A stretch of DNA of 17,454 nucleotides, from positions 1 through 17,454 of the IMG/VR virus record IMGVR_UViG_2579778773_000004; one strand, written 5' to 3'. The first letter of the stretch is position 1. Each line of letters begins with the position of its first letter. The DNA is from a virus (taxonomy: Duplodnaviria; Heunggongvirae; Uroviricota; Caudoviricetes). Of the stretch, positions 1 to 15,231 are shown piece after piece. Under the pieces are notes generated by a model, which searched no databases, was not told where the DNA came from, and saw only the letters and a list, made by a program, of their open reading frames with translations. The position numbers and the translations under genes were made by a program.

Positions 1-147
1 GTTATTACCCGATCTCGATGGAAGTTATTGAGTGATCTCCTTTCATGAAAATACGCATTAATAAACAGTTTCTCAATTATTAGTCAGCATCATCAGAAGA
101 AACCCCTCTCCAAAGATAATTTTATAAAATAATATAAATGTCCACGC

Positions 148-200
148 CTGGCACGGAGTAGACTGGCTATCTAAGCTAAAGGTCTGCTGTGAGCGAAAAC
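148..200. repeat. Island repeat copy C: imperfect hairpin element (arms tggcacggagtagac 149-163 / gtctgctgtgagcga 182-196, ending gcgaaaac)
   Basis: By hand alignment it is about 70% identical to copy B (2793-2845). It shares the 5' ctggcacggag and 3' gcgaaaac ends. The arms can pair, including G:U pairs if read as plus-strand RNA. Confidence 0.6.
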
Positions 201-516
201 CGGACATGTACATATCTGTCAAAAAAGCAATTTTTAGCTGCCACTTCCAGTGGATGGCGGTCGGTCAGGAGATAATAGAAACAAAACATAATCATTAAAT
301 GACTGAAAAATGAAAATTGTATAAACATTCATCTTAGATGACAATTTCAAATGCATCTCTATAATTTCCCCTAGTTCAAACCAGACAGAATCTAACCACT
401 GCAAGTAGTTTTAAAATCATAGGAAAATAACGTGCATCAGCAGAAGCATATGGAAAATACACAACACATTTCAAAAATACATACTTTTAAAATTTTCATT
501 GACTGATATTTTTAAT

Positions 517-1152
517 TTATTTTCGTAAAAAAATCGACGCCCTATCCGGGTTTACTTTACATAGATGAGAAAGATATAGCGCCCTTCGATTAAATTTGCC
601 TTCAGTAAGGTCATCAATGTTTTTCCTGAATGGGTACTTAATCCGTGCAGCTATGTCAAAGTCACTAATGCTTGCATGAGCTTTGGTAAGTTTAGCTATC
701 CCATAAGTGCCATAGCCAAAGTAGCAACAGGATATATATGCTATGCAGATATCATCTGCTGTTGTTGCTTTCCTGATAAGAATGGCTAATATTTGCTCTC
801 TTATTTTTCTTCGAACTGTTTTCTCATATCTCTTAGTTATTGTTCTAACAAACTGTTGGTCTATAGTACTTGCGCCTTGATGAATGTTTTTAAATAATCT
901 CAGATATATAGTTCTTAAAATAGCAACTGGATCAACTCCCCTGTGTAATAGTTGCCGATGATCCTCAGCCACTCTTAATATATCAATTAAAGATAAAGAT
1001 ATAGATCTTTCACTTATCGAACTAAGCCTTATATAATCAATACATTTATAATAATCTTCCATAATACTTTTAACCCTGAATTTAAAAACCATTTCTGCCA
1101 ATAGCAAGTATGGCAATGACAGTAAGGTAATCAAAAAGCGCTTCGCTGCCAT
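517..1152 (-). CDS. GT51-family (MtgA-like) peptidoglycan glycosyltransferase homologue with an N-terminal membrane anchor, 211 aa from the ATG at 1152
   Basis: The ORF carries the ordered GT51 motifs AEDHRQLLHRGVD (EDxxxxxHxGxD), GASTIDQQ (GxSTITQQ), RRKIRE (RKxxE), YISCCYFGYGTYGIA and KYPFR. Motif spacing resembles E. coli MtgA as I recall it. The N-terminus has a hydrophobic segment, FLITLLSLPYLLLAEMVF. I moved the start to the ATG at 1150-1152, which has an AGGAG Shine-Dalgarno 8 nt upstream. That start overlaps the end of the upstream ORF by 22 nt. Confidence 0.7.
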   Translation of the reverse strand: MAAKRFLITLLSLPYLLLAEMVFKFRVKSIMEDYYKCIDYIRLSSISERSISLSLIDILRVAEDHRQLLHRGVDPVAILRTIYLRLFKNIHQGASTIDQQFVRTITKRYEKTVRRKIREQILAILIRKATTADDICIAYISCCYFGYGTYGIAKLTKAHASISDFDIAARIKYPFRKNIDDLTEGKFNRRALYLSHLCKVNPDRASIFLRK

Positions 1153-1679
1153 TTCACGTCTCCTGATGTATCTGCAGCGGTGGACCAAAATTTGCCATGC
1201 ATAGCATCTGCATTCACCTTTTGGAAATACAGCAAAATGGTATAACTCCTTAACTCACCTTCCATTTTTATATTCAATGAGGCATGATTTTTCCTTAAGT
1301 AATTTCTCTTAATCACCCCTCGAACCTCTCCAATACTTCTATGCTTACCAGTGTATGGTCTTATATTATTATTGTTTTCAACGTCTTTTGTTTTCTCAAT
1401 AAACCCTTCAATATTATTGTTGTCACATATTAAAGTCAGTGTATAAAACGTTTTTAAATTCAAGTAAGGATTATACGCAGATTTTAGTGTTTTACATTCA
1501 ACTTCAAAGACGCCCGAAAAATTTGGTGGCGGTTTAATATATTCTTTGAATATAAAAATCAATACAGCCGCAATAAGAGTAGCAACAGCACCACTTAAGA
1601 TTTGATTTGTGGAAATAAAGGTTAGAGATGGCTCAAGCCATTCCCAAAATATGTTGAAAAAATCAGTAAATTTATTCAT
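1131..1679 (-). CDS. Hypothetical single-pass membrane protein (182 aa), the upstream partner of the GT51-like gene
   Basis: ATG start at 1677-1679. One clear hydrophobic helix (ILSGAVATLIAAVLIFIF) is followed by a roughly 135-aa Asn/Lys-rich soluble domain. I recognise no motif. The 3' end overlaps the start of the next gene, which suggests translational coupling. The Shine-Dalgarno is weak. Confidence 0.55.
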   Translation of the reverse strand: MNKFTDFFNIFWEWLEPSLTFISTNQILSGAVATLIAAVLIFIFKEYIKPPPNFSGVFEVECKTLKSAYNPYLNLKTFYTLTLICDNNNIEGFIEKTKDVENNNNIRPYTGKHRSIGEVRGVIKRNYLRKNHASLNIKMEGELRSYTILLYFQKVNADAMHGKFWSTAADTSGDVKWQRSAF

Positions 1680-2180
1680 AAATTTCTTTTGATAGTATGT
1701 TTTTTATATGATGTTACATTTTTGAGAAAAAAGCAACTTCGCCGATTAAAAACTATCTCGCTGGAATTTATGGGCATCATGTTATGAATACATTCTTATC
1801 CCATAGGGAATAAAACCCTATCTATAGAATAAAAATCCAAATTTTATCTTAATAAATCAGATAAAAGATACTTATACTACAAAGGTACTTGTGTAAGATC
1901 AAACTTTTAATCCTATAAGTTATAGATTGAAGCAACTGTGACTTATAGTGCGCACACTTAAGAATCTCCGATGACGATGGTAGCAGGAGACAACTTTTGA
2001 CAACTCACTCCTATTACCAACTTACTGACTTGCTCCGCGTTGAGAGATTTATAGTTATGCCAGCACTGTCCGCTTCTGGCACATTGCGGAAGGGCTAACG
2101 GCCCGGAGTAAGTGAGTAACGGATGTTTGCAAGCACTCTTACTGCTGACAATGATCGCATCCAAGATAAAATAGGTGGTG

Positions 2181-2696
2181 TCAAGGTACAGGTTCACCAA
2201 TATAAGTGTGTGTGCAGCAACGACATGTCACCTTAACGTCATCTCTTGTGATTGAAAGGTTTACCTGTTGCAGAATTCCATTCTCATCAACAAACAGACC
2301 TGGGTAAAAACTGCTTTCACCAATGCAGACTAAATCCCTTCGCTGATGCTCATGTAGCGCGACCAACCAGAATACCGGCTCGGTGGTATCAAGACGTCCA
2401 CATACTTCGCTGAATATTTCATTCCACGGCTTGCCAATCTCTTTGATCAGAAAATAAAACAACGGTGTGTAGTCTCGGCCACGCTTCTGTCTGCTATGCA
2501 TTGTCTCGCGCTTTACCAGTAGCTCATCTCCGACTTTTTTGCGATTTCGTTCCCACCGATACTCAGCACCCGGATTATTAGAATGGTGCCGCGTCGTCGT
2601 GTTGACGCTGCGATATAGTTTACGGGACTTATTCTGCTGATGAATACGCATAGCTCGATCTCGTACATCCTTTCTTTTGTGGGCCAGTAGCCCCAT
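2181..2696 (-). CDS. Hypothetical basic protein (171 aa) with an Arg/Lys-rich N-terminal half and a C-terminal CxCC cluster
   Basis: ATG at 2694-2696 with AAGG about 7 nt upstream. The N-terminal roughly 75 aa are rich in R/K/H, and the C-terminus contains VTCRCCTH. I recognise no family. The local GC (about 40-57% on sampled lines) is higher than in the flanking island genes. Confidence 0.5.
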   Translation of the reverse strand: MGLLAHKRKDVRDRAMRIHQQNKSRKLYRSVNTTTRHHSNNPGAEYRWERNRKKVGDELLVKRETMHSRQKRGRDYTPLFYFLIKEIGKPWNEIFSEVCGRLDTTEPVFWLVALHEHQRRDLVCIGESSFYPGLFVDENGILQQVNLSITRDDVKVTCRCCTHTYIGEPVP

Positions 2697-2792
2697 TCAG
2701 ACCTTGTGTTACTGTATAAAAAATGAACACCCTTAAAGGCTGTATCATTCTGCTCAAATACCATCCTACTGACAACTACCAAAGGTCGGATT

Positions 2793-2845
2793 CTGGCACG
2801 GAGCGGACAATCAAGTAGAACTGAAGGCCCGCTATGTGCGAAAAC
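2793..2845. repeat. Island repeat copy B: imperfect hairpin element (arms tggcacggagcgg 2794-2806 / ccgctatgtgcga 2829-2841, ending gcgaaaac)
   Basis: It lies between the metallopeptidase stop (2883) and the 171-aa ORF start (2696). It is homologous to copies A and C. Pairing is 11 of 13 positions if read as plus-strand RNA. Confidence 0.6.
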
Positions 2846-2882
2846 AGACAGACACAGATTGATCACAAACATACCTGAACCA

Positions 2883-3812
2883 TCAGGATTTTATATCCTT
2901 GTGTGGCTCTAATCCTTCAGAAAGGACTTTATCAAATGCAGCATATTGCCTTTGTAATTTACTTTCACATTCATACAGACTCTTTAAACTAACATCATCC
3001 ATAGATTGAAAGAGTCTTTTGTTATCAACTAAATAGGAGTATGCATTAAAAATAGAAACATCCATTATATCTTTCAGTTCTTCATCAGATAGTTTAGTCT
3101 TTTTACTTAAATGCTTAATCACATGTGACTGCAATGCATTTGCGCGAACCATGGCGGGAGGATATTTGCTATTCTTCCCTTCCAATTTACATAGAAAATT
3201 AAAGAAAAAAAATATTGATGTTAAAGATAAACTAACAAGTGTTTTCTCTTCTATTTTTTTCTCCGGGGCCTTTTTTATTGTATTTAAGACGACATCTGCA
3301 ACAAAGTATGCTGAGAATACATCTGCATCATACTCCATTAATGTTTTAATCTGATCTTCACTAAAATCTTCATCGACTACATTGTACCCCATTGAATAAA
3401 CTTGGTAATCACCAATCAGGTTTATTTCTTTACTTTTGGCTAATGATAAGTGTCCACGAGCGACATGTCCAAGTTCATGACCGAAAATATGGTGCCAAAT
3501 AAAGACACACCCTAACGCAACTGGAGCTTCCTTTTCTTTCAAGTCAGGGTATTCTCTCATGAAGAATTCTATATTTTCAGAAAGAATGTCAAACGTTATT
3601 GGTATCAACCCACTCAATAAAATAATATGGAAATTATTGTCTTTTTTTTGTGCGTGAGCATTAAGGTTAAAATCGTCCTTAATGTGCAGAGCTATTTTTT
3701 TACCATCCTCTTCAATAGCGGAGTTTATCTCTATCAATCCTTTTTTGAAGGTATCGTAAACAGGCAAGAAAAAACCACTTTCTATTTTCGAAATTTCATC
3801 ACGGGTCATCAT
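2883..3812 (-). CDS. ImmA/IrrE-type (M78, COG2856-like) zinc metallopeptidase, 309 aa, with an uncharacterised C-terminal domain
   Basis: HELGH is encoded at 3465-3479 within IWHHIFGHELGHVARGH. It is followed about 40 aa later by EYDADVFSAYF, which fits the ExxAxxF(A/S) third-ligand helix of ImmA/IrrE peptidases. The start is ATGATG, with AGGTGG 6 nt upstream. The gene is very AT-rich. Confidence 0.7.
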   Translation of the reverse strand: MMTRDEISKIESGFFLPVYDTFKKGLIEINSAIEEDGKKIALHIKDDFNLNAHAQKKDNNFHIILLSGLIPITFDILSENIEFFMREYPDLKEKEAPVALGCVFIWHHIFGHELGHVARGHLSLAKSKEINLIGDYQVYSMGYNVVDEDFSEDQIKTLMEYDADVFSAYFVADVVLNTIKKAPEKKIEEKTLVSLSLTSIFFFFNFLCKLEGKNSKYPPAMVRANALQSHVIKHLSKKTKLSDEELKDIMDVSIFNAYSYLVDNKRLFQSMDDVSLKSLYECESKLQRQYAAFDKVLSEGLEPHKDIKS

Positions 3813-3869
3813 ATTTCCACCTTTAACATGAAATCTAATTCTAATTGATAGGTCTACTTAGTTTCGCTC

Positions 3870-3898
3870 ATTGTACTATTTTATTAAAGTGGGTTGAA
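3870..3898 (-). promoter_or_regulatory. Candidate sigma70 promoter for the metallopeptidase gene (-35 TTCAAC, 17-nt spacer, -10 TACAAT on the minus strand)
   Basis: The minus strand reads ttcaac-ccactttaataaaatag-tacaat, with the -10 hexamer ending 57 nt upstream of the ATG at 3812. The -10 matches 5 of 6 and the -35 matches 3 of 6. AT-rich DNA yields such matches easily. Confidence 0.3.
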
Positions 3899-3935
3899 GG
3901 TTACATTTTTATATAGCATGTCTACTGTCCCTTTG

Positions 3936-3977
3936 TGGCACAGAGCGGACTGTCAGATTAGTTTTTACTCTGTGCCA
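3936..3977. repeat. Island repeat copy A: perfect 10-bp inverted repeat tggcacagag (3936-3945) / ctctgtgcca (3968-3977) with a 22-nt loop
   Basis: It lies between the G stop (4012) and the metallopeptidase start (3812). Its left half, tggcacagagcggac, matches copy B tggcacggagcggac at 14 of 15 positions. No U-tract follows on either strand. Confidence 0.65.
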
Positions 3978-4011
3978 TAGATGAGTAATCTCACACCAGA
4001 TCTAATACGAT

Positions 4012-4590
4012 TTATTGTGGCATTTCAGGCCATTCTATATCCGGAGCATCTTCCGGCTGAACGCGATTCAGTAGCACACGGTATTTTTTCCAGTGTGTCA
4101 GACTTAACTTTTCTTCCTCGGTAGCCATATCTAAATCGACAGCATCCTGCAGCGTGGCAATAATTTCACCTGCATATGCAATCAGCTCTTTCTTCTGAGA
4201 GTCAGCCGCTCTGACAAGCGCATCACGCTCTGCATTCTCATCATTCACCCACGCATTTCCGTTCCATTTCTGATAATCCCCATCCGGGGAAATGGCTGTC
4301 ACGTCTGGAGGTAATGCGCCAAGTTCAGAAATATAAATGGCTGCTCCTGTTTTTGTTTCATAGACAGTCTTTCCACGATGGTCTTCCACCAGATCCCATT
4401 TCATTTCATCTGCATTGAAAACGGCGGCAAAACCCACCGGAATATCTGGAGGTGCAATGTCTGTACTGTTTGCAGGAAGACCTGTATGCGGCGGAATATA
4501 TGCGTCACTTTCGCCAATAAATTCATTGGTTCCATCAAGTAAATTGAAAACGCGGATAGTTTGTGTCTCTGCACTCATTCTGAAAGTCAT
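4012..4590 (-). CDS. G: Tail fibre assembly chaperone (P2 gpG / Tfa family)
   Basis: It sits directly after H with a TAATG stop/start overlap. The sequence has Tfa-like features (N-terminal [22 protein letters not shown]; C-terminal [12 protein letters not shown]-type motif). At 192 aa it is longer than P2 gpG as I recall it, which is consistent with a swapped fibre/chaperone module. An alternative start at M5 is possible. Confidence 0.85.
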
Positions 4591-6365
4591 TATGCCAGCC
4601 TCACAATATAGTTATACGCAACGTTTTTTACGGTGTTCTCTGAATTACCTGTGGCACTTACAGTGACGGTATGACTATGCGCGCCAATCGCAATGGAATG
4701 GCTGTGAGCACCAATGCCAACCGTGTGATTATGCTGACCAATGTCGACTGTATGGGCGTGTGCTCCCGCAGAGCTTGACACCTGGTTGGTTCCTGATACC
4801 TGTACGCGTTGTTTACCCCCGATGGAGTCACCACCGTAACGACCACCGACAGTGTGTGTATGCGCTCCCGTATTGTTTGTCGTTTTTGTGCCGTGGTTAA
4901 ACGTGCTGACCGTTTTTGTCCCGTAATCAAACGAACTGGTTGTTTTCGTCCCTAAATCCGTACTGGATGCACTGGCACTGTGGGTATGTGATTTAATTCC
5001 GTCCTGTTCCTGTGATAATACGGCGCGACCACTGGCGGGTTTGCCCTTGATTGTCCAGCCGCGCATATCTGGAATCACCCCTGACGGATAAGCTACTGCA
5101 AGCAGGGGATAGGCTGCTTTATCAAAAGTCTGCCCCTGCATCAGGGCATAGCCTGTAGGTACTGAATCAGAAGGCCACGGGATTGGAGCACCTACCGGAA
5201 AGTTGTTGTACCCGTCATGATGAATCAACTTCCAGCCTTTAAAAACACCTGCGCAAACTGCCGCAAAACCGATTACATCTCCATTAAAATCAATGCCAAT
5301 AACAGTATTGTATCCCTGAGTATTGCTGTGTGCAGAGTTGATGTAGTGCTTCCAGGTGTGTCCTCCAGGCATTCCATTCTTTGCTGAGGAAGCATTAAAA
5401 AAGCCACCACGCGTACGTAAATCAGTAGCAATATCACTTATATTTTCGGCGTACTCATTTAATCCCGCTCCTTTAGGTACTCGCTTGTTTGCATTGTCAT
5501 TAGCAGCTTTCACTGCTTTCGGAGTCGCGGCAAGCGTTTCAGAATCGCTGTTGGTGGCACTACTTAGCTGGACAAGCCCTTTTCGTGCCGTGGTGGCGTC
5601 CTGTGCGGTGTATTTGCCATTAGCAAGGTCATATGCTGTCTTAACCGCCTTTGGCGTTGCTGCGAGCGTCTCAGATTCGCTGTTGGTGGCACTACTTAGC
5701 TGAACAAGACCTTTTCGCCCCGTGCTGGCGTCCTGAGCGGTATATTTTCCGTTAGCAAGGTCATACGCTGCCTTAACCGCCTTCGGCGTTGCGGCCAGCG
5801 TTTCAGATTCACTATTGGTCGCGCTGCTTAACTGAGTAAAACCTTTTGCAGTCAGTGAGGCGTCCGGATGGCGTCGTGACTGTTCGTGCTCTGCAATTTT
5901 GTCATCAACGTAATCCTGCGTCGCCATCACCGTTGTGGTGTCGATGGTCAGATCCACTGAGGCCACACTGCTGACGATAATGACCATGCGGCAGGTCTGC
6001 GAACGTCCTGAGCCTTCGGCAAGGGCAGGCTTATAACTTTCGGCCATGTTCGCCACGGCAATTAACGCACCGGTATCATCGTACAGACCAAGTTCACGCA
6101 TCCAGAAACCGCCCACCTCCGGCGGGATGACCAGCTCTGCGATAATATAATTACTGTGTCGATTGTCCTGACTGATTTTATTCAGGGCATGTCGCCAGAC
6201 CTCATTAACAAGTTTTGTCTGTCCGGCATCCGGCACCGGCAATTGACCGCCACCGTCCCCGACGGCCATCGTGGTAATGTTGACCTTCCTGCCTCCCGGT
6301 GCAGTCGCCGCTGCCAGCTTTGCTGCACCGGCGGTAGTGATAACGGTTTGGAACTTTACGCTCAT
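4590..6365 (-). CDS. H: Tail fibre protein (P2 gpH-like N-terminus, divergent receptor-binding C-terminus), 591 aa
   Basis: The N-terminal roughly 170 aa ([24 protein letters not shown]...[29 protein letters not shown]) closely match P2 gpH as I recall it. Fibre repeats, a collar-like segment ([28 protein letters not shown]...IPDMRGW) and HxH repeats follow. Confidence 0.95.
5487..5855 (-). repeat. Three tandem 129-nt (43-aa) phage tail-fibre repeats inside H ([39 protein letters not shown]-type)
   Basis: Residues about 171-293 of H contain three consecutive near-identical units. The nucleotide periodicity also shows up as the repeated [15 protein letters not shown] in the antisense ORF 5356..5703. 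Confidence 0.9.
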
Positions 6366-6375
6366 TATTCCTCAC

Positions 6376-6906
6376 TTATCCTGGGTAAACCGTAATAACA
6401 TCGCCGTCATAAGCCACACCACCGGCAAACAGATAACCGGGGATGTCCTGGGTAATATTCAGACCAATAAGGTGACGACTTGCAGGTTTGGCATCGGCAA
6501 TCAGCCGTTCCATTTCCAGATACATCTCCTCCGTGATGCCGCTTTCCAGTACGCCGATATCAAGCCGGAAGGTGCCGGGCGGGTCGCTGTTTTCCCACCA
6601 CTCCGTCACGTTGATGAGATAGCCGAGCGGCTCCACCACACGGCGAATCGCACCAATAGTGCCCTTATGGCAGTGAATGAAATACGCATCGCGGATAACG
6701 GCGCGTTTTGTCGCTTCCGGCCACTTTTCATCCCAGCGGTCAACCGAAAATGACCACGCCAGCCACGGCAGCAGATTTGCCGGACAGGTGTCCGGGTTCC
6801 ACAGCTCACGAATACTGACCGGCGTTTTTTCAATTTCCGCACAGGCTTTTGCGGCGGCAACTTCAAGCGGTGATGAGCCTGTCGGCAGCAGTCGCGAATC
6901 ATTCAT
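6376..6906 (-). CDS. I: Baseplate/tail protein gpI
   Basis: 176 aa, the same length and position as P2 gpI between J and H. Its start overlaps the J stop. The sequence (MNDSRLLPTGSSPLEVAAAKA...) matches my recollection of P2 gpI. Confidence 0.9.
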   Translation of the reverse strand: MNDSRLLPTGSSPLEVAAAKACAEIEKTPVSIRELWNPDTCPANLLPWLAWSFSVDRWDEKWPEATKRAVIRDAYFIHCHKGTIGAIRRVVEPLGYLINVTEWWENSDPPGTFRLDIGVLESGITEEMYLEMERLIADAKPASRHLIGLNITQDIPGYLFAGGVAYDGDVITVYPG

Positions 6907-7807
6907 CCGAGCCTCCGGTCACGACGCTGTATTCGGTACAGAAAGACGCCTGCGTACTGTTGAGCACGATGTCGGCCAGTGGTGCAGCCAGTTCGACACG
7001 CTGCACGCCTTCCACATGCAAAGCGGCATAAATGGCAGACAGACGGATGTCGCGCCCCAGCCGGTGCTGTGCCGTGATATACGCTTCCAGTTCTTTCACG
7101 GCGGCCGCGCGAATGGGTTCTCTTTCAGGACCAGGGTAAAGGTAAAGCGTGGCGTTTATCTGGTATTCAACGATGGCAGCAGACTGCACGTTCACACGAT
7201 CGGCCACCGGTCTGACGTCCTCGCCATTAAGGGCGTTACGCACCACAGCCAGCAGGTCTTCGGATGCGACACCGTTATTTTCACGTGACAGCACAGAGAT
7301 GGTGACACAGGCCGGAGACGGACTGGTGACAGAGATATCCGCGACACGCCCGTCGGCACTGCGACCATGATACTGATAGGCGCCCACCGACCCGGCGACG
7401 CTTAAACCTTCAAACGCCTGCTGAATACGCAGACGATAATCCGTGTCAGATTCCATCACTGCCGGTGTCGGCGGGATGGTCGAATCATCTGCCGGGGTGA
7501 TAATCAGGCGCGCGGTGTTGTAATTGGCACCAATCACATCAAGGTCATTACCAGCGGCACAGGCCAGCATCACCGCCCGTGCGGCCTCATTCACACGCTG
7601 ACGCCAGATAAGCTCACGATAAGCATTTTCCTCCAGCAGTTTGACGAGAGGCTCGGATTCCAGCGTCAGGGTACGGGCAACCGCCTCCTGCTGGTCTTCC
7701 GGGTAAAGGGAAATCAGTGTCGCCTTGCGTTCGGCAAGAATGGTTTCAAAGTCCAGCTCCTCGACCACATCCGGTGCGGGTAGCTGGTTCAGGTCGATAA
7801 TCGGCAT
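6899..7807 (-). CDS. J: Baseplate wedge protein gpJ (T4 gp6-like)
   Basis: 302 aa with P2 synteny W-J-I. The N-terminus MPIIDLNQLPAPDVVEELDFETILAERKA is typical of gpJ. Confidence 0.93.
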   Translation of the reverse strand: MPIIDLNQLPAPDVVEELDFETILAERKATLISLYPEDQQEAVARTLTLESEPLVKLLEENAYRELIWRQRVNEAARAVMLACAAGNDLDVIGANYNTARLIITPADDSTIPPTPAVMESDTDYRLRIQQAFEGLSVAGSVGAYQYHGRSADGRVADISVTSPSPACVTISVLSRENNGVASEDLLAVVRNALNGEDVRPVADRVNVQSAAIVEYQINATLYLYPGPEREPIRAAAVKELEAYITAQHRLGRDIRLSAIYAALHVEGVQRVELAAPLADIVLNSTQASFCTEYSVVTGGSDE

Positions 7808-7811
7808 GGTT

Positions 7812-8159
7812 TCAACTCACAGGGATGGTTAACGAAAGTTGCTGGCCGGTGTCGTTGTGCTGGCCGTTTAACGTAACTGTCATTCGCCCGTCAAAACTGC
7901 GCTCAGTGGTGACGGATGACAGGGTGACGCGGGGTTCCCATTTCAGCACCGCCATGTAACAGGCGACCTTAATCTGCAACTCAAGCGCCGGGGTCTGCGG
8001 CTGGTCAATCATTGACGCCAGCAACGAGCCGTAATCACGACGCATCACCCGTGAGCCGACCGGTGTGCGCAGGATATCGCCGATACTCTGGCTGATATGC
8101 TCAAGGTCAGTGACAGTCAGGCCATCACTGCAATTCATTCCGAGATAACGCGCTGTCAT
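7812..8159 (-). CDS. W: Baseplate wedge protein gpW (T4 gp25-like)
   Basis: 115 aa with an ATGA overlap with the V stop. The SIGDILRTPVGSRVMRRDYGS motif is typical of the GPW/gp25 family. Confidence 0.93.
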   Translation of the reverse strand: MTARYLGMNCSDGLTVTDLEHISQSIGDILRTPVGSRVMRRDYGSLLASMIDQPQTPALELQIKVACYMAVLKWEPRVTLSSVTTERSFDGRMTVTLNGQHNDTGQQLSLTIPVS

Positions 8160-8791
8160 AGAGGACTCCCGGTTGTGCCGCCGCTGTCGCCGGGGTGTTT
8201 ATGGGTATGCAGCACCTTACCGTTTGATGAGAGTTCACCACCGGTGTGTTCAATGTTGCCGCGCATCGTCCCACCCTTCTGCACTTCCAGCGTGCCGGTA
8301 GTCAGTTTGTTAGTGCAGACCACCTCCGGTGTGTCCAGGGTGACGCGGGTTGATGCTTTCACCATGACCACCGGCACCGTGGCAGTAACAGAATCAGAAG
8401 CCGTCACGCTGGCCGTTTTAATTCCGCTTACCGTGAGTGCACTGGTTTCGGGTTCATACTCAATCACCGCCCCGTCAGGGAAACGGATATGCAGGGCATC
8501 CGCCGACGCAGACGGCGCGGGGTTATCGCCGGAATAAATCCCCGGCAGAACGAACGCCGTGTCGAGTTCACCGCCCACAGCCAGAATCAGCACCTGTTCC
8601 CCCACGGAAGGTGCCCACCATGTGCGCGAACGTCCGGCACGATGGGTCAGCCACTGAAGCCAGTCGGTGCACATGCCGCCGGTCTGCACACGGCAGCGAC
8701 CGGCGTTAAGGTCGGTTTCGACGATAATGCCGGTGCGGATCATGTTGCGCAGTGCGCGCGCGAGTTCCTGAATATTTGCGAGAGTGTTCAT
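8156..8791 (-). CDS. V: Baseplate central spike protein gpV
   Basis: 211 aa, first gene after the S-V intergenic gap, as in the P2 V operon. The C-terminal HTHKHPGDSGGTTGSPL tip motif is typical of P2 gpV. Confidence 0.93.
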   Translation of the reverse strand: MNTLANIQELARALRNMIRTGIIVETDLNAGRCRVQTGGMCTDWLQWLTHRAGRSRTWWAPSVGEQVLILAVGGELDTAFVLPGIYSGDNPAPSASADALHIRFPDGAVIEYEPETSALTVSGIKTASVTASDSVTATVPVVMVKASTRVTLDTPEVVCTNKLTTGTLEVQKGGTMRGNIEHTGGELSSNGKVLHTHKHPGDSGGTTGSPL

Positions 8792-8803
8792 AACGGGAAG
8801 GAT

Positions 8804-8825
8804 GCCGCCGGGTCATACCGGCGGC
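8804..8825 (-). other. GC-rich perfect hairpin (gccgccgg / ccggcggc, 6-nt loop) in the S-V intergenic region
   Basis: An 8-bp perfect inverted repeat lies 33 nt downstream of the S stop and about 12 nt upstream of the V ATG. On the minus strand it is followed by ATCCTTCCCGTT, which is only weakly U-rich. In P2 the O-operon/V-operon boundary lies here. Its role as a terminator, attenuator or leader structure is not resolved. Confidence 0.3.
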
Positions 8826-8857
8826 AATGTGACGATGAGGTGTCAGGAATGGCACAA

Positions 8858-9310
8858 CTAACGGTCGAGGTGAGCCAGAATAATCTCTTCAATCATCTGC
8901 ACATCCTCACCGGTAAAGCCGAGCAGAGGACGCGCCGGATAATCAATTTTCTTACCGTCTTTCCGGGTTTCTTCCGACAGACCGAACTGATGCACGCTGG
9001 CGATTTTCGGTGACTTCCCGCCGTAAAACTCCATTGATGCCTGTTCCGGGCTGGCGTGGATATGCAAAAAACGACTGGTGATAAGTTTCGCAAACATTTT
9101 TCGCTTAACACGACCAGTCTTTTTTCTGGCGCTCTGCTGCTGGCGTGGCGCGTAGGGTGTGCCGTCCGGGGCTTTCTGAGCCATCACCCGACGCTGCTGA
9201 CTCTGCCGCAGACGCTTCGCCAGCTCTGCACTCAGCCGCCGACGCCCTGACGGTGACAGCGACTCAATAAGTCCGGTCAGCCGGTCTTCAAAACGCTTAA
9301 ACTCATTCAT
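8858..9310 (-). CDS. S: Tail completion protein gpS
   Basis: 150 aa with P2 synteny R-S. Its start overlaps the R stop by 8 nt. The sequence MNEFKRFEDRLTGLIESLSPSGRRRLSAELAKRLRQSQQ matches my recollection of P2 gpS. Confidence 0.9.
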   Translation of the reverse strand: MNEFKRFEDRLTGLIESLSPSGRRRLSAELAKRLRQSQQRRVMAQKAPDGTPYAPRQQQSARKKTGRVKRKMFAKLITSRFLHIHASPEQASMEFYGGKSPKIASVHQFGLSEETRKDGKKIDYPARPLLGFTGEDVQMIEEIILAHLDR

Positions 9311-9770
9311 CCCACTTGCTCACCAGTTCGCCATTGATATAAAGCTCCATCGGGCGGGTGACCGGCTCCGGCGGCGTGGGTTCCGGGATATTCTTCACAT
9401 GCAGCGCGCCGTCCACCTCACTGACCAGCGTGCGCTCGGTCAGCATCAGGCTGATGCTGATATCAAAGCTGCTGTCATTGTTGATGTCTGCATAAAACGT
9501 GAAGCCCTTTTTCTGGCCTTCGTCGGTGGTCATGATGTCGGGCTGATTTTCCCGCAGCCACGCCAGCACCGGCACGATGAGCAGGTCAAAATCACCGGTA
9601 AAGTCGGTCACAATGACATTGAGCGTGTAACGCTTTTCGAATGACAACGACGCCGCCAGTGTGGAGGCAATACTCCCGTTATCCACGAATATCCGCAGCA
9701 TATCGGGGTTAGTTTTCAGCACCGTGACGGCATCAGTCAGCGCCCTGCGCAGGCTGTCGGGTTTGAGCAT
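9303..9770 (-). CDS. R: Tail completion protein gpR
   Basis: 155 aa with P2 synteny after the lysis cassette. The sequence MLKPDSLRRALTDAVTVLKTNPDMLRIFVDNGSI matches my recollection of P2 gpR. Confidence 0.9.
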   Translation of the reverse strand: MLKPDSLRRALTDAVTVLKTNPDMLRIFVDNGSIASTLAASLSFEKRYTLNVIVTDFTGDFDLLIVPVLAWLRENQPDIMTTDEGQKKGFTFYADINNDSSFDISISLMLTERTLVSEVDGALHVKNIPEPTPPEPVTRPMELYINGELVSKWDE

Positions 9771-10023
9771 CGTTTTCGTCCTGACAGTGTTTAATCATTT
9801 TTACCTGGCTGGCACAACGTGCCAGCGCGTTCTCGAGCTGCCGGATATCGGCACTTAAATCGCCGTTCGTCTCCGGGTCACTGCCCGGCATCGGGCAAAG
9901 GCTCACTTTCGGGCAGGCGTTGGCGACAATCACTGGCGTCGGTGCAGGCGGGGCGCTGGTGCAACCGGCGCACAGCATCAGGCAGGTCAGCACCGTACCA
10001 GCGGCGAAAATCTTCGTTTTCAT
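9733..10023 (-). CDS. lysC: LysC, an Rz1-like outer-membrane lipoprotein spanin subunit embedded out of frame in lysB and running into R
   Basis: The ATG at 10021-10023 lies inside ORF 9733..10140 and gives 96 aa: MKTKIFAAGTVLTCLMLCAGC..., a signal peptide ending in a lipobox-like LCAGC, then a Pro-rich segment. The architecture is the same as P2 lysB/lysC. Confidence 0.8.
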   Translation of the reverse strand: MKTKIFAAGTVLTCLMLCAGCTSAPPAPTPVIVANACPKVSLCPMPGSDPETNGDLSADIRQLENALARCASQVKMIKHCQDENDAQTRQPAQGAD

Positions 10024-10303
10024 TAAGTAACCTCGTGATGGTTTTCTCGCGCTGTGCTTCACGCTTCGCGGCGTTCTCCAGTTCCTGACGCAGTGCCACC
10101 TGCGCCAACTCGTTTTTGTCTGCCCTGGTGAGGGCAGCATGAAGCTGATTTTTCAGCATGATGATGGTCGTCTGCTGTTCACTGGCGACGTTGTTCACCC
10201 TGTCCAGCGAGGCGCGCAGGCTGGCGTTTTCATGCTTCGCCAGAAACAGTCCCGCCACCGCCAGCGATAACAACACAACCAGCACAATCATCAGCTTTGA
10301 CAT
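9878..10303 (-). CDS. lysB: LysB, an Rz-like inner-membrane spanin subunit
   Basis: 141 aa with an N-terminal TM segment (LMIVLVVLLSLAVAGLFL) followed by a coiled-coil-like charged region. Its position after lysA matches P2. Confidence 0.85.
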   Translation of the reverse strand: MSKLMIVLVVLLSLAVAGLFLAKHENASLRASLDRVNNVASEQQTTIIMLKNQLHAALTRADKNELAQVALRQELENAAKREAQREKTITRLLNENEDFRRWYGADLPDAVRRLHQRPACTDASDCRQRLPESEPLPDAGQ

Positions 10304-10716
10304 GGTTCCCGCCCCTCAAGACGCTGACGGCAGGCCGTGCGTATCAGCCGGAAAAACAGCGACGCCACGAGATAAATCAGCGCAGTAAAAATCCACCCGG
10401 TGGCAACCAGCGAGATAAACGTCGCCACCATCACTACCAGAGCCGCCGCCCGTCTGCACCACGGCACCGGCTGCAAAAACAGCGACGTGACAATCTTCAC
10501 GGCCAGCGATTCCGGTGGCAACTCCCGCCCGTAGCGTTCCAGCACATACTCCGTGGCATACACGCCAACACCACCGGCAACCACACAGATAACCGTCACC
10601 AGAATCGCCCAGGCAGCGACAAAATTGACGGCCACGCTCTGCGGGTAAATCAGGGACAGTGCCAGCATCAGCGCCAGCGACACATTCAGCATCAGTGAAA
10701 GGGATAATTTCTTCAT
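10291..10716 (-). CDS. lysA: LysA, a multi-pass membrane lysis-timing protein (antiholin-like)
   Basis: 141 aa with about 4 hydrophobic segments. It lies between K and lysB, as in P2. Confidence 0.85.
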   Translation of the reverse strand: MKKLSLSLMLNVSLALMLALSLIYPQSVAVNFVAAWAILVTVICVVAGGVGVYATEYVLERYGRELPPESLAVKIVTSLFLQPVPWCRRAAALVVMVATFISLVATGWIFTALIYLVASLFFRLIRTACRQRLEGREPCQS

Positions 10717-10730
10717 GGTGTTTACTCCGT

Positions 10731-11228
10731 TTAAGCCAGTACGCCGCCAGCGGTACGCCAGACGGTGACCAGTTTTTCCAGTGAATGCTCACGCTGACCG
10801 TAACCGGCACCCGGCAGGGACGCCCAGATATTTCGACAGCGTGAAATGGCGCGCTCAATACGTCCCGCCCGGATGTCATCCAGCGCACCGCGTTCGCGGA
10901 TCAACTGAATGGCGAGTCTGTCCTGTGACAGCGGACTGAAATCCGGCAGGGCAAGCTGTTTGCGGTAATGCGGCCAGAACAGGTAAAGCTGCTGATAGCG
11001 ACCGGAGGCCGTGGATTTTTCACCGCGACGGTTAAACACCTTCGCCGGTCGGCCATGTGCGAACGGGTGGTCACTGTAGTCGGTGAAGATTTCCGGCTTC
11101 CCGTCCAGTCCGGTGACTATCACGTCATAGCCACGGTTTTTCGTCAGCGGATGATTCGCCGTCCCTTCGGACACCGCCAGCATGTCGAGAAAGGCGGCGA
11201 TATTCTGGTGCGTGTTAATTACCGGCAT
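10731..11228 (-). CDS. K: Endolysin gpK (lambda R-like lysozyme/transglycosylase fold)
   Basis: 165 aa. The sequence MPVINTHQNIAAFLDMLAVSEGT...GRYQ carries the conserved catalytic-Glu context (SEGT). It has a TAATG overlap with holin Y. Confidence 0.93.
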   Translation of the reverse strand: MPVINTHQNIAAFLDMLAVSEGTANHPLTKNRGYDVIVTGLDGKPEIFTDYSDHPFAHGRPAKVFNRRGEKSTASGRYQQLYLFWPHYRKQLALPDFSPLSQDRLAIQLIRERGALDDIRAGRIERAISRCRNIWASLPGAGYGQREHSLEKLVTVWRTAGGVLA

Positions 11229-11509
11229 TACGGTTTCCCCCTGCCCTTAAAGCGGCGCTGAATGGCAATCTCAATCACCTGATAACCGGCGATACCCAGC
11301 ATGGAGCCGATGCCGCACACCGCAGGCAGTGACAGGTCAGGAAACTGCACCAGAACAACACCGGCAACCATCGAGACAAAACCACCGAGCAACATGCGCC
11401 CGATAAACAGACGCGGGGTGATGGGTTCACCACCGGCAAGCACCTTGCCGACAACAATCAGCACCCCAATCATGAAAAGCGACAGGACGCTTTTTTCTTC
11501 TGCTGTCAT
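11228..11509 (-). CDS. Y: Holin gpY
   Basis: 93 aa with three hydrophobic segments and a basic C-terminus (RRFKGRGKP). Position and length match P2 Y. Confidence 0.9.
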   Translation of the reverse strand: MTAEEKSVLSLFMIGVLIVVGKVLAGGEPITPRLFIGRMLLGGFVSMVAGVVLVQFPDLSLPAVCGIGSMLGIAGYQVIEIAIQRRFKGRGKP

Positions 11510-11512
11510 GCG

Positions 11513-11716
11513 TTACTCCCACAGATTGACAGTTTCAGCCACGGGCGCGGTCTGAACGTCGGGCAGTTCGACGGCGGTGCCGTGTGGCAGCACCGCACCC
11601 AGTTCAGCCAGTCCCGGATTTGCGGCGAGCACGGTCTCAACCACGCCCTCAGTGCGCCCGTAATACCGGACACAAATGGCGTCGAGCGTGTCGCCCTGTA
11701 GCGCAAAGGTCTTCAT
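11513..11716 (-). CDS. X: Tail protein X (LysM-like)
   Basis: I trimmed the ORF-track 90-aa ORF to the ATG at 11714-11716, which gives the 67-aa sequence MKTFALQGDTLDAICVRYYGRTEGVVETVLAANPGLAELG... matching my recollection of P2 gpX. It has a TGATG overlap with the L stop. Confidence 0.9.
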   Translation of the reverse strand: MKTFALQGDTLDAICVRYYGRTEGVVETVLAANPGLAELGAVLPHGTAVELPDVQTAPVAETVNLWE

Positions 11717-12225
11717 CAGATTTGACTCACGATGCAGCGCGGCTTGTCCTGGATGCGCGCCACTGCCCAGCGCATATCCCGCCACAACTCATCAATGGTG
11801 CTGTCAATGCTGTCGGCCTTCTTGTCGCCTTTCGCACTGGCATCCACGCCGCGGTAACGCTCATAAAGCGACGCGGTCGCCATCGCACACACGGCGCGCT
11901 CGTAGTAAAATACTTTGATGCTTTCACCGTCGATGTCGTCCGCCGGGACGTCCGCCAGACGCGTAAAACCGGCGGCAATTTTCTGTTCGCGGTACTCGTA
12001 CAGCTCCGCATTCGTCTCCGCCATACCTGACTTGATGGCCTCACGCAGACGGGCGGGGGCGACGGTCTGCTCAAGGCGCATACGTTCCCGGACGCGCTTC
12101 GGGTCGATATCGGGAAAAAAGAACGTGTTTTTAATCACCGGCTCGTCGCCTGCCGGTTGCGGGATGACCACCGTACCCTCACCGGATACAGGAGCCTCCT
12201 TTCGCGGAATAATCAGCGTCATCAT
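11716..12225 (-). CDS. L: Head completion/stabilisation protein gpL
   Basis: I trimmed to ATGATG at 12220-12225 (GAGGT Shine-Dalgarno upstream), giving 169 aa, MMTLIIPRKEAPVSGEGTVV..., the length and sequence I recall for P2 gpL. Confidence 0.9.
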   Translation of the reverse strand: MMTLIIPRKEAPVSGEGTVVIPQPAGDEPVIKNTFFFPDIDPKRVRERMRLEQTVAPARLREAIKSGMAETNAELYEYREQKIAAGFTRLADVPADDIDGESIKVFYYERAVCAMATASLYERYRGVDASAKGDKKADSIDSTIDELWRDMRWAVARIQDKPRCIVSQI

Positions 12226-12324
12226 GACTACCTCTGAAAAGTCGGGCGGTGGACGCCGGTGCAGTGTCAGATGATTCACCCTCACTGACCGGCGTGCCGC
12301 CCTGGCGCGGGGCGCATTCGGTTG

Positions 12325-13068
12325 TTAACTGGCTTTCTTTTTCGGGCGTCCACGTTTTGCCGGGGTCACGCTCCGGGTCTTACGCGGGGTGCGGGTGACC
12401 GCTTTGGGCTGCGGCTCCGGCTTCGGTTTCAGCTCCCGCTCCAGTCGTTCAATCTCTTTTTTAACGCCTGCCTGACAGTCGAGCTGTGTCGCACGTTGCA
12501 GGTGCGCCAGCGCACCGGCGGCATCACCAGCGTCACGCAGAAACAGACCGGTGATTTTGTGCAGATTTGCGCGCACTTCATCAGGCATGTCAGCCGTGGC
12601 GGTCAGTTCAAGGGTGTCCGTCAGCAGGCGGGTATCCACGGATTCACCGGCAGCGTGGGCGCGCATGGCCGCGAGCGCGACCTCCTCGGTGAACATGTAC
12701 GGCGGGGTGCGGCGGTGTTTACCCGGCATGGTCAGACCGTACTTCAGGGCATAACGGGCAATCTCCAGCGCACCGGCAATATCGCCGGTATCCAGACGCC
12801 ACAGCATGACCGTCATCAGAATGTCATCCTGTGCACCTTTGCCCTGCTCCAGCACGCCGTTCACCCACGGCAACCAGAACGGCAGCAGTTCGCGTTTTTT
12901 CGCGGCCTTCAGCTCTTTTGAATAAATCGCTTTCAGTGTGCGCTGGTCTGCGGCGAGCTTAACCAGCATCTGCTCATAGACAGTTGCATGTCGCAGCGGG
13001 GCGGCTTCCCGCTGCGCGGTCATCGCTGCCGAGACCCGCATCATGTGGCGCTGTGCGGGACTCGTCAT
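12325..13068 (-). CDS. M: Terminase small (endonuclease) subunit gpM
   Basis: 247 aa with P2 synteny N-M-L and a basic C-terminal tail (PRKTRSVTPAKRGRPKKKAS). Confidence 0.9.
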   Translation of the reverse strand: MTSPAQRHMMRVSAAMTAQREAAPLRHATVYEQMLVKLAADQRTLKAIYSKELKAAKKRELLPFWLPWVNGVLEQGKGAQDDILMTVMLWRLDTGDIAGALEIARYALKYGLTMPGKHRRTPPYMFTEEVALAAMRAHAAGESVDTRLLTDTLELTATADMPDEVRANLHKITGLFLRDAGDAAGALAHLQRATQLDCQAGVKKEIERLERELKPKPEPQPKAVTRTPRKTRSVTPAKRGRPKKKAS

Positions 13069-13071
13069 CGG

Positions 13072-14145: not shown

Positions 14146-14203
14146 ATTTGTTCCTGAAATTAAGGGTTAATCGTGAAGGTTTTCCCGGACTGACTGACGC
14201 CGG

Positions 14204-15058: not shown

Positions 15059-15231
15059 TGTCAGGAGTCCTGAATAGTGATTAGAGGAGTCACATGTCGG
15101 CATCAGTTTCCCGACGATGCGCATCCTCTGCCATCAGTCCCGGATGGCTTATCACTGACACAACAGCACCTTAGCGAATCGCGGGGCGCGACTCAGTAGC
15201 CTTGCCGTGTATTCATCACGGCGAGGTATTC
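15059..15231. promoter_or_regulatory. Divergent intergenic region expected to hold the Ogr-dependent late promoters P_O (minus strand) and P_P (plus strand)
   Basis: A 173-bp gap lies between the divergently transcribed O and P genes, which is where P2 places P_O and P_P. I could not find an exact TGT-N12-ACA activator box by eye; the closest is TGG-N12-ACA at 15145-15162. The call therefore rests on synteny. Confidence 0.4.

Follow-up and report, generated by a model that had tools for sequence, protein, structure and literature searches.

An array of AT-rich cassettes with shared end motifs in the Z/fun slot of a P2-like prophage

The P2-like prophage sequence examined here (IMG/VR record IMGVR_UViG_2579778773_000004, positions 1 to 17,454, referred to as the window) leaves its phage core just beyond tail gene G and enters AT-rich DNA, raising the questions of whether this island is a single system or several, how it was assembled, and what its genes do. 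Its flank is organized as follows:

4012-4590, minus strand: gene G, tail fibre assembly chaperone and core flank (PF02413, Caudo_TAP; E = 3.4e-40)
4590-6365: tail fibre gene H, which precedes G

The G+C content is 0.362 in the island (57-3950) and 0.570 in the core (6366-17454), consistent with the sharp drop downstream of G reported in a preliminary description. Along the window it is 0.30-0.35 at 1-2000 and 2750-4000, 0.43-0.46 at 2000-3000, and 0.53-0.64 from about 5500 on. By segment it is 0.333 for gene A, 0.467 for the B segment, 0.339 for C, and 0.346 for D, so that an earlier hand count of about 25% for the peptidase gene (A) was too low (33%), and one of 40-57% for 2181-2700 was roughly right (46%).

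The slot is the one expected. Phage P2 (NC_001895) has fun(Z) between G and FI, and a near-identical prophage of E. coli CE0011b carries the same block between a gene annotated as tail fiber assembly protein (G) and the sheath gene FI. The window does not extend as far as FI, as had been noted, and ends instead in terminal sequence of ISEc12. The right end of the cargo is at 3927-3950, with P2 backbone homology from 3938 on, and its left end lies outside the window. The slot is variable as proposed: Peduovirus P24A7b has three different small genes there, and P2-like viral contigs have other cargo of 1.2-2.4 kb. The attribution of a tail-slot defence hotspot to Rousset 2022 does not stand, as that study (PMC9122126) analysed and tested the gpA-gpQ (old/tin) locus and cites Nilsson 2004 for the 'two variable loci'. 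The tail slot accounts for 16% of known P2 defence systems (2026 NAR paper, PMC13586616), and Egorov 2024 is a further source for defence systems in it; partition systems and cytolethal distending toxin are examples of the non-defence cargo that P2 hotspots also carry (PMC9122126).

All four minus-strand open reading frames described previously (2883-3812, 2181-2696, 1131-1679, and 517-1188) are present and intact, and none of the four matches any P2 core gene. The start of the second is probably 2651, which agrees with RefSeq and the family alignment, and that of the fourth is 1152. The island features, listed from the FI side, are:

1-56 (up to 68), no strand assigned: terminal sequence of ISEc12 (IS21 family), interrupting the island; the rest of the IS is outside the window
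57-206, minus strand: upstream (promoter-side) end of cassette E, whose gene (259 aa) is on the far side of the IS and outside the window
178-1788, minus strand: C-D cassette, comprising a promoter region, gene C, gene D, and a 3' region
517-1152, minus strand: gene D, a predicted minimal GT51 peptidoglycan glycosyltransferase, 211 aa, membrane-anchored
1131-1679, minus strand: gene C, 182 aa, modelled (AF2) as an N-terminal helical hairpin and an eight-stranded beta-barrel
2181-2651, minus strand: gene B, 156 aa, from a broad family without annotation
2883-3812, minus strand: gene A, a predicted stand-alone gluzincin metallopeptidase, 309 aa, probably cytoplasmic

On sequence comparison, 57-3950 reads as an array of independently mobile AT-rich cassettes in a Z/fun-type G-FI hotspot and not as one system, with the order from G to FI being A, B, C-D, and then the start of E, cut by ISEc12. 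The DNA-homology limits fall at 57-206, 178-1788, 2062-2809, 2847-3972, and 3938 onward, and every one of A, B, C-D, and E is also found by itself in unrelated surroundings, with limits of its own, in line with the earlier proposal of at least three independent modules. The modules are independently mobile, but the whole stack has also moved as one unit: in strain NB4833 all 4.87 kb are present at 99.9% identity inside a non-P2, integrase-bearing island, in a block that ends at 3950. Homology to both CE0011b and the NB4833 island begins at 57. Window positions 1-68 have 94-97% matches in 2147 E. coli records (about 1700 genomes) at many unrelated sites, and in strain SFE8 the match adjoins ISEc12 istA/istB. 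Gene E itself lies between D and FI in CE0011b, and the 57-206 segment is found at 96.7% identity upstream of the same gene in strain J31, at a lambdoid prophage end beside ybhB/bio.

The cassette boundaries coincide with a 24-nt imperfect palindrome, GTCCGCT-N10-AGCGGAC, which has two types: type 1, on the G side, is centred on TGGCAC, and type 2, on the FI side, on GAGCGA. The two often form a conserved 66-nt type 2/type 1 junction. The copies in the island are:

140-205, plus strand: composite 66-nt junction with type 1 at 140-163, an 18-nt spacer, and type 2 at 182-205 (position weight matrix [PWM] scores 19.1 and 33.5)
2068-2091, plus strand: type 1 palindrome, downstream limit of cassette B (PWM 28.2)
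2785-2851, plus strand: B/A composite junction with type 1 at 2785-2808 (PWM 25.6) and a degenerate type 2 at 2828-2851
3927-3950, plus strand: type 1 palindrome at the G-side edge of the slot, 62 nt past the G stop (PWM 25.5)

In the PWM search, five window sites beat all 200 shuffles used as the control (best shuffle score 15.0), all of them in the island and in one orientation, and no site in the 13.4 kb of core scored above the shuffles. Approximately 9 of 13 block end-points are within 10 nt of a motif: the E block (to 206) and the C-D block (from 178) meet at the 140-205 composite, B blocks begin at 2062 and 2069, and the limits at the B/A junction are 2809/2808 for B and 2847/2802 for A. 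The type 2 remnant at 2828-2851 aligns with the type 2 motif downstream of the Klebsiella oxytoca A homologue. No motif was found at the C-D upstream end (1788), and cassette B has type 1 on both sides rather than one of each type.

These motifs are not peculiar to the window. They bracket fun(Z) in phage P2, and in approximately 26 P2-like contigs they are found some 65 nt past G and some 216 nt ahead of FI; type 1 holds the same G-side position in these contigs, in P24A7b, and in P2 (61 nt after G). The architecture at 140-205 matches 54 distinct composites from other loci, the spacing of 14 motif pairs is exactly 42 nt, and conservation extends to the 18-nt spacer. In Leclercia, a type 1 motif precedes the C-D cassette and a type 2 motif follows it, and composites in other enterobacterial prophage contigs adjoin Schlafen/AlbA_2, radical-SAM, HsdR, and DUF4365 genes. 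The motif is absent at the distant A and C-D homologues of Vibrio, Dickeya, and Serratia, and no recombinase was found linked to it. From its position we infer that the motif may be a recombination site, through which cassettes would be gained, lost, and stacked, both here and in further mobile elements of enterobacteria; a shared end motif of this sort may explain how such hotspots swap cargo.

The coincidence of palindromes and break-points could instead mark the ends of transcription units, with terminators or insulators inherited along with each gene and no recombination involved, a reading that we consider somewhat doubtful. Intact copies do fold into a strong hairpin (-20.8 kcal/mol and z = -2.9 for the P24A7b copy), in e14 a U-tract follows the copy immediately behind lit, stop codons precede type 2 copies by 32-312 nt, and hotspot islands are known to be subdivided by terminators (Egorov 2024). 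However, across loci most copies lack a U-tract, and those in the window are degenerate, with folding no stronger than that of shuffled sequence (z about 0). Unrelated genes share the arms, one of two fixed centres, and the 42-nt spacing with its spacer, which independent terminators would not do. Type 1 copies also lie upstream of genes, homology blocks stop within a few nucleotides of motif edges, and the V-operon terminator is at another location in the P2 GenBank record.

What the cassettes encode bears on why they are carried. The A, C, and D families are tiny and patchy, with 15-31 clusters each among 5.8 billion proteins, and the invariance of catalytic residues across the A and D families suggests that both are enzymes under selection. 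In A, HExxH (residues 112-116) and ExxxD (160-164) are invariant among 13 homologues; the AF2 model (pLDDT 82, pTM 0.84) is nearest in fold to M13/M48 gluzincins, and the Pfam M48 match is weak (E = 0.08). A is carried by three kinds of mobile element, alone in each: a K. oxytoca P2-like prophage (between int and att), a Dickeya ICE/T6SS island (beside DUF4238), and a Vibrio lambdoid prophage. By analogy with Lit, it may be a peptidase that stays latent until infection and then cleaves a host or phage target. The B family is much broader (247 clusters at E <= 0.001, and 469 loci from several phyla among 185,579 species genomes), with conserved motifs including PLYRKVNT, DYTPLFxFLL, and CxCCTHTFNG. 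None of 35 members has a Pfam or PHROG match, and no conserved neighbour gene was found at the family loci; B is present in many genera, and in an integrase island in 85 E. coli genomes.

The C-D cassette matches, over exactly 178-1788 and at 80.7% DNA identity, a lone two-gene insertion in a Leclercia chromosome. C overlaps D by 22 nt, and a D homologue with the same overlap lies beside C in every context examined, a coupling kept over 33-95% identity. The pair is found alone in Leclercia, Citrobacter, Serratia, and other chromosomes, and in five of six other contexts it is among housekeeping genes rather than in a defence island. According to its AF2 model (pLDDT 84.8), C is a membrane protein whose Cap15/OptE-like beta-barrel has the fold seen in CBASS/Panoptes effectors, and its best natural structural match is an immune effector; only one of the two helices at its N terminus is clearly hydrophobic, giving a transmembrane segment (residues 24-49). 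D matches PF00912 (E = 1.8e-22; 80 bits versus a cut-off of 27) and PBP1a/MGT structures in the PDB (to E = 9e-15), and has a hydrophobic segment at residues 5-25. E63-D64, G93/S95/T96/Q100, R115-K116-E119, Y139, and R190 do not vary among 21 homologues with identities as low as 30%, and D is catalytically intact as judged by its motifs, with all GT51 catalytic motifs conserved. S-2TMbeta effectors are proven membrane-disrupting immune effectors, and activity of the partner enzyme is needed to keep the related OptE from being toxic (PMC12657218). By analogy, C may act as a ligand-gated effector that disrupts membranes and has its state set by D, and control could run via the lipid II/undecaprenyl-pyrophosphate pathway rather than a nucleotide messenger.

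Taken jointly, the island is most likely a motif-bounded mobile cassette array in the Z/fun slot carrying prophage-borne anti-phage or exclusion genes, to which we assign a probability of roughly 50%. A defence role is plausible, the case being circumstantial and drawn from context. Comparison of the four proteins with PADLOC-DB gave no match at E <= 1, so the earlier statement that no named system is present holds for membership. The same result suits a different account, in which these are ordinary lysogenic-conversion genes (morons) without an anti-phage role in a slot that merely tolerates insertions: for example, D would supplement or alter the synthesis of peptidoglycan, C would serve D as membrane partner or regulator, A would be a housekeeping-type or regulatory protease, and B a small regulator. 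The preserved GT51 motifs are those of a working biosynthetic enzyme, C-D mostly forms an islet surrounded by genes for metabolism and transport (as in Leclercia and Citrobacter), and the known non-defence cargo of P2 hotspots gives precedent. We nonetheless regard this as unlikely, because so few and patchy clusters are unusual for a useful housekeeping function, A rides on three different element types, C most resembles an immune effector, and recognised defence-type genes elsewhere are flanked by the same junction motifs. More improbable still is that C-D is a selfish addiction pair stabilising its carrier, with C a membrane toxin checked by D. The tight, translationally coupled, and conserved layout, the toxicity of OptE without its active partner, and the occurrence of the pair as a lone islet are compatible with this, but the toxicity of C is purely hypothetical and a full-size enzyme with conserved chemistry would be an unusual antitoxin; many toxin-antitoxin-like pairs are moreover abortive-infection systems, such that this account overlaps the main one.

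Among known systems, the Z/fun hotspot of P2-like phages (Nilsson 2004; Egorov 2024; Moura de Sousa 2026) shares the G-FI position and the AT-rich foreign cargo that varies among relatives; relative to this literature, apart from Nilsson 2004, the island differs in being a stack of four to five cassettes with genes not described there, and motif-bounded cassettes are not mentioned in it. C has no detectable sequence similarity to the S-2TMbeta proteins Cap15 (CBASS) and OptE (Panoptes), and differs from them in its single clear transmembrane segment, in having a GT51 peptidoglycan glycosyltransferase rather than a nucleotide cyclase as its partner, and in that the effector gene comes first. 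D resembles MtgA, Staphylococcus aureus MGT, and class A PBP glycosyltransferase domains in its N-terminal anchor and GT51 domain, and shares all five GT51 motifs, including both catalytic glutamates, with monofunctional enzymes; it is shorter (211 aa), scores 37 bits against an NCBIfam equivalog cut-off of 183 (mono_pep_trsgly), and, besides being AT-rich and rare, is horizontally mobile and in every case coupled to C. A is similar to Lit (peptidase U49, an abortive-infection zinc protease of prophage e14) in being an HExxH protein of about 300 aa encoded by a single prophage gene, and a junction palindrome also follows e14 lit, although no homology is detectable (hhalign probability 1.5%) and the A fold is closest to that of the M13/M48 gluzincins. 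The array motif differs in sequence from integron attC sites and Acinetobacter plasmid pdif modules and, at 24 nt (66 nt as a pair), is shorter. The array has no dedicated integrase beside it, and its cassettes bring their own promoters; like those systems, however, the array consists of promoter-plus-gene units arranged head to tail, each ending in an imperfect palindrome, with the same units found in different replicons.

The preliminary description of this DNA as a P2-like prophage with AT-rich cargo in its G-FI (fun/Z) slot is largely right, and the island is cargo of the P2 tail hotspot. The composition break that it reported after G is real and large (GC 0.36 for the island against 0.57 for the core): sliding GC content is 0.30 to 0.35 across most of 1-4000, with a hump of 0.43 to 0.46 at 2000-3000, and is 0.53 to 0.64 past ~5500. 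ORF calling recovers the same four minus-strand ORFs, here genes A to D, but the earlier hand count of ~25% GC for the peptidase gene is too low, as gene A measures 0.333. The P2 gene FI is absent from the window, as had been observed, and the end of an insertion sequence, ISEc12, occupies 1-56 (to 68) instead.

Features of the island and the adjoining P2 genes
57-3950, AT-rich island, GC 0.362
517-1152, minus strand, gene D, GC 0.346
1131-1679, minus strand, gene C, GC 0.339
2181-2651, minus strand, gene B; the B segment has GC 0.467
2883-3812, minus strand, gene A, GC 0.333
4012-4590, minus strand, G (Caudo_TAP, E = 3e-40)
4590-6365, tail fibre gene H, which precedes G
6366-17454, P2 core, GC 0.570

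Placement in the G-FI slot is borne out by Escherichia coli CE0011b, whose P2-like prophage beside pflB carries an identical block between G (tail fibre assembly) and FI (tail sheath); in phage P2 itself the slot between G and FI is filled by fun(Z). Comparison with Peduovirus P24A7b shows the P2 backbone stopping at both edges of the island block; P24A7b has three small genes there, unrelated to those of the island, and other P2-like contigs likewise carry different cargo. Both attributes of the P2 Z/fun hotspot are present, the position between G and FI and a variable content with a composition unlike the core, and the location in an accessory-gene hotspot is established. Egorov (2024) described this tail hotspot, where 16% of the defence systems of P2 are located (Moura de Sousa 2026, PMC13586616). 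The complete island is rare, occurring in only 2 of 5,426 complete E. coli genomes; in strain NB4833 the same 4,867 bp, 99.9% identical, lies inside a non-P2 island with integrases.

The neighboring tail genes have features of their own. G (GC 0.454) and H (GC 0.512), at 4012-6365, are below the remaining core (0.57), consistent with exchange of the tail-fibre module. The 3′ part of G (4049-4247, minus strand) matches the Rfam family of IS009, an E. coli sRNA candidate, below threshold (52.9 bits where the gathering score is 117, E = 2e-10), as does a second P2-like contig (L153); the IS009 family itself probably arose from the remnant of a tail-fibre-assembly gene in a prophage. CE0011b has an IS2 within the 3′ end of G (L001 13010-14339, corresponding to window positions 4060-4065, which are duplicated), cutting it from 192 to 181 codons; the window copy is uninterrupted. 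The H ORF is intact (591 aa) and contains three Phage_fiber_2 repeats as well as ~130-nt internal DNA repeats, and its CE0011b counterpart (L001 14870-16645) is 100% identical in DNA, yet is annotated in RefSeq as three pseudogene fragments.

The proposal that the island is built of independently acquired modules is supported, in that every part recurs alone with its own limits of DNA homology, with the qualification that the stack, once assembled, has also travelled whole. That it is an array of cassettes is near certain.

Island segments and the sites at which each occurs alone
57-206, region upstream of a fifth gene, E: lambdoid prophage end beside ybhB/bio, strain J31
178-1788, C-D: two-gene insertion in Leclercia, 80.7% identity
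2062-2809, B: integrase island near ychF in 85 E. coli genomes, 95.9%
2847-3972, A: Klebsiella oxytoca P2-like prophage, between int and att, 87%

Islets similar to that of Leclercia are present in Citrobacter, Serratia, and others, all with the same 22-nt overlap of C and D, and the B segment is also found in Citrobacter (90%) and many further genera. Gene A occurs in a Vibrio lambdoid prophage and in a Dickeya ICE/T6SS island, where it adjoins a gene for DUF4238, a domain for which Rousset showed protection against T7. Between C-D and B there is a 273-bp AT-rich gap (1789-2061) with no junction motif and no convincing ORF, for which homologues are found in only the two E. coli genomes holding the whole island.

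ISEc12 belongs to the IS21 family and is present at many unrelated sites in ~1,700 E. coli genomes. Its insertion point here lies between the E/C-D junction motif and gene E, which is displaced or lost in this genome. Gene E (259 aa; L001 8108-8887 and L005 8105-8884) completes the island in relatives, adjoining FI in CE0011b, and has no match in Pfam, PHROG, or NCBIfam; where it sits at the end of the lambdoid prophage beside ybhB/bio, it has a type 2 junction motif on both flanks.

The junction motif, a 24-nt imperfect palindrome of the form GTCCGCT-N10-AGCGGAC, was noticed at every junction when the block limits were compared and has two types that differ in the centre (TGGCAC in type 1, GAGCGA in type 2). 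A scan of viral contigs in which the ten central bases were nearly free, apart from a fixed GC pair, gave at least 120 stretches, nearly always with one of these two centres. With position weight matrices built from viral contigs alone, five window sites score above the best of 200 shuffles, all in the island and in a single orientation, with none in the 13.4 kb of core; a sixth copy is degenerate.

Junction motif copies in the window
140-163, junction motif
182-205, junction motif
2068-2091, junction motif
2785-2808, junction motif
2828-2851, degenerate type 2 copy
3927-3950, junction motif

About 9 of 13 independent homology end-points fall within 10 nt of a motif edge, and composition shifts at the motif sites, with a median GC step of 0.064 against 0.034 at random positions. 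Exceptions occur: the B cassette has a type 1 motif on both sides; no motif is present at 1788, the upstream end of C-D, or with the distant homologues of A and C-D. Both types are also combined in a 66-nt composite, in which a conserved 18-nt spacer separates type 1 from type 2 and of which 54 distinct copies were found; among adjacent pairs less than 100 nt apart in viral contigs, 14 of 19 have a spacing of exactly 42 nt. BLAST with a 78-nt composite recovers the orthologous site only, so the element is too degenerate to be counted by BLAST.

Phage P2 has a type 1 motif 61 nt after G and a type 2 motif ~190 nt ahead of FI, one on either side of fun(Z) and both unannotated in its GenBank record. 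The arrangement recurs in ~26 P2-like contigs (motifs ~65 nt past G and ~216 nt ahead of FI, enclosing 1.2 to 2.4 kb of cargo), and in two P2-like contigs four copies (end, pair, end) delimit a stack of two cassettes. The cassette as read from G to FI is thus type 1 motif, genes, and type 2 motif, which is exactly the structure of the Leclercia C-D islet. The motif appears confined to Enterobacterales, with 48 hits in 178 kb of enterobacterial loci and none in 491 kb of other bacterial loci. The slot sequence is also seen in K. oxytoca, where 'CAGATTAGGTTT..CTCTG' and a decayed type 1 motif lie upstream of A (L014 7845-7920); in P2 phages 'CAGATTAGGTTT..CTCTG' and the type 1 motif sit just downstream of G, suggesting that the cassette moved between these two hotspots together with flanking slot DNA.

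Composites are not restricted to P2-like elements, and five IMG/VR prophage contigs (L107, L120, L203, L208, and L221) have them without a P2 G or FI homologue by tblastn. The adjacent genes code for Schlafen/AlbA_2, radical SAM, HsdR-like helicase, DUF4365, and thymidylate-synthase-like proteins, and several others without a Pfam match. In e14 of E. coli K-12 (L021 3597-3620), a motif copy, GTCCGCCGCTCGCTTAAAGTGGAC, followed by a U-tract, is located 8 nt past the stop codon of lit, an abortive-infection gene. Intact copies fold into a good RNA hairpin but those in the window do not, giving no support for a conserved stable hairpin in the latter; the U-tract is absent from most copies, and no Rfam family matches the motif. 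The positions of the motifs suggest that cassettes are exchanged at these sequences, by either site-specific or short-homology recombination; no recombinase linked to the motif was found, nor any integrase adjoining the array in the P2 context. The title of Nilsson's 2004 paper speaks of site-specific recombination, and the P2 motif copies may therefore already have been described.

Gene A codes for a 309-aa protein in which HExxH (112-116) and ExxxD (160-164) motifs are invariant in 13 aligned homologues and are evidently under selection. The structure model (pLDDT 82, pTM 0.84) has a zincin fold, and together with HExxH and a downstream Glu (ExxxD) zinc ligand it identifies A as a gluzincin of the thermolysin/neprilysin/M48 type. 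It falls below every curated-family threshold (Pfam M48, 13.2 bits against a cut-off of 20.3; no NCBIfam match), matches a PHROG of unknown function weakly (E = 0.02), and has only 15 clusters among 5.8 billion proteins. A relationship to e14 Lit (peptidase U49) was considered and rejected, with an hhalign probability of 1.5% and a BLASTP alignment (E = 0.059) confined to the HExxH stretch; A may nonetheless function as a latent protease, much as Lit does. In an ST648-type island, the gene lying upstream of B was also compared as a candidate diverged A, and is not one.

The 156-aa product of gene B belongs to a broad, unannotated family of 247 clusters at 50% identity. A search of 185,579 species genomes gave 469 loci, ranging from Enterobacterales as far as Bacteroidota and Planctomycetota. 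Its motifs are strongly conserved, but it matches nothing in Pfam or PHROG, and no conserved neighbor emerges among 80 loci examined. The commonest neighbor cluster is an S-type pyocin with a colicin-E3-like 'Cytotoxic' domain, within 3.5 kb at 15 of the 80 loci, mostly in Pseudomonas (L059, L062, and L095 among them); offset and strand vary, and the association is probably one of shared ancestry. A PAAR-pyocin gene also lies near one C-D pair (L009). Among phage records, only six Prevotella Lak megaphages (H41 to H46) match B by tblastn (27% identity over 77% of B, E = 3e-7).

Gene D codes for a 211-aa peptidoglycan glycosyltransferase of the GT51 family (PF00912 in Pfam, 80 bits where the cut-off is 27, E = 1.8e-22) that aligns residue by residue with PBP1a, with conservation of the catalytic motifs (EDxxFxxHxG, GxSTIxQQ, RKxxE, and the rest). 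Residues E63, D64, H70, G72, G93, S95, T96, and Q100, as well as R115, K116, E119, Y139, and R190, are invariant in 21 sequences, down to 30% identity; the motifs are under selection and D is very probably an active enzyme. An N-terminal hydrophobic segment (5-25) forms its anchor and suggests that it would act, as a lipid II polymerase, at the outer face of the inner membrane. The model of the 182-aa C protein (pLDDT 84.8) has two N-terminal helices (2-24 and 26-48) and a beta-barrel domain with nine modelled strands, a predicted soluble minimal barrel of the Cap15 type. Only residues 24-49 are strongly hydrophobic, the first helix carrying D6, E12, and E15. None of 18 family members has a Pfam match at E ≤ 10, S_2TMBeta included, and a profile search of the PDB with the C family does not recover Cap15; one homologue is named 'SMODS-associating 2TM beta-strand rich effector' in UniRef. 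A holin-endolysin role for C-D was considered and rejected, as D is a GT51 synthase rather than a lytic transglycosylase, and a separate lysis cassette is present in the prophage. No paper in our literature search pairs a Cap15-like barrel with a cell-wall enzyme, and none links a GT51 or transglycosylase domain to phage defence or to Cap15.

New anti-phage systems come in large part from the P2 and P4 hotspots. The odds that the island genes act against phages are about even. The earlier statement that none of the four proteins matches a named system holds for PADLOC-DB v2.0.0, in which A, B, C, and D have no match at E ≤ 1, and this result, together with the usual occurrence of C-D as a lone islet among housekeeping genes, counts against a defence role. 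The earlier citation for the hotspot was mis-attributed: Rousset (2022) studied the gpA-gpQ locus, and for 'two variable loci' merely refers to Nilsson (2004). The accessions of the island proteins are absent from the Rousset supplements. For the reading as a whole we estimate a probability of about 0.5; confidence in the specific C-D mechanism is low.

In that mechanism C would be a gated membrane effector, its state dependent on the chemistry of D. C-D would comprise a Cap15/OptE-like effector controlled by a lipid II-polymerising GT51 enzyme and not a nucleotide cyclase, with which the cell would guard its cell-wall precursor pathway and kill itself upon perturbation by phage, for example by lysis proteins that block MraY, MurA, or MurJ. 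The 24-nt palindromes and 66-nt pairs would be recombination sites that turn the P2 tail hotspot into an integron-like exchange platform for defence genes, along with comparable sites in enterobacterial lambdoid prophages, islands, plasmids, and chromosomal islets. It is unlikely that both parts are correct together, with C-D a GT51-controlled two-gene immune module and the motifs hotspot recombination sites.

Two leads follow, the junction motif and the Cap15-like/GT51 pair. A 2026 survey of thousands of elements noted that the recombination process swapping P2 and P4 cargo is still to be elucidated (PMC13586616), and a conserved motif at cassette boundaries, which P2 itself shares with dozens of P2-like contigs and with the same cassettes outside P2, could make the mechanism of cargo exchange testable and help to locate unannotated cargo cassettes in Enterobacterales by sequence. 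Among the cargo are three candidates, the most unusual being the peptidoglycan polymerase coupled to a Cap15-like barrel protein.

The array resembles that of an integron but differs in its sites, as integron cassettes have attC sites and an adjacent IntI/attI, whereas the element here is the GTCCGCT-N10-AGCGGAC palindrome. The Panoptes paper (PMC12657218) describes S-2TMbeta proteins as effectors that disrupt membranes and are switched by a ligand made by the operon partner. The partner of Cap15 and OptE is a nucleotide second-messenger synthase, whereas that of C is always a GT51 protein, and if C-D is an immune module, its effector gating would be tied to envelope-precursor chemistry instead of nucleotide signalling.
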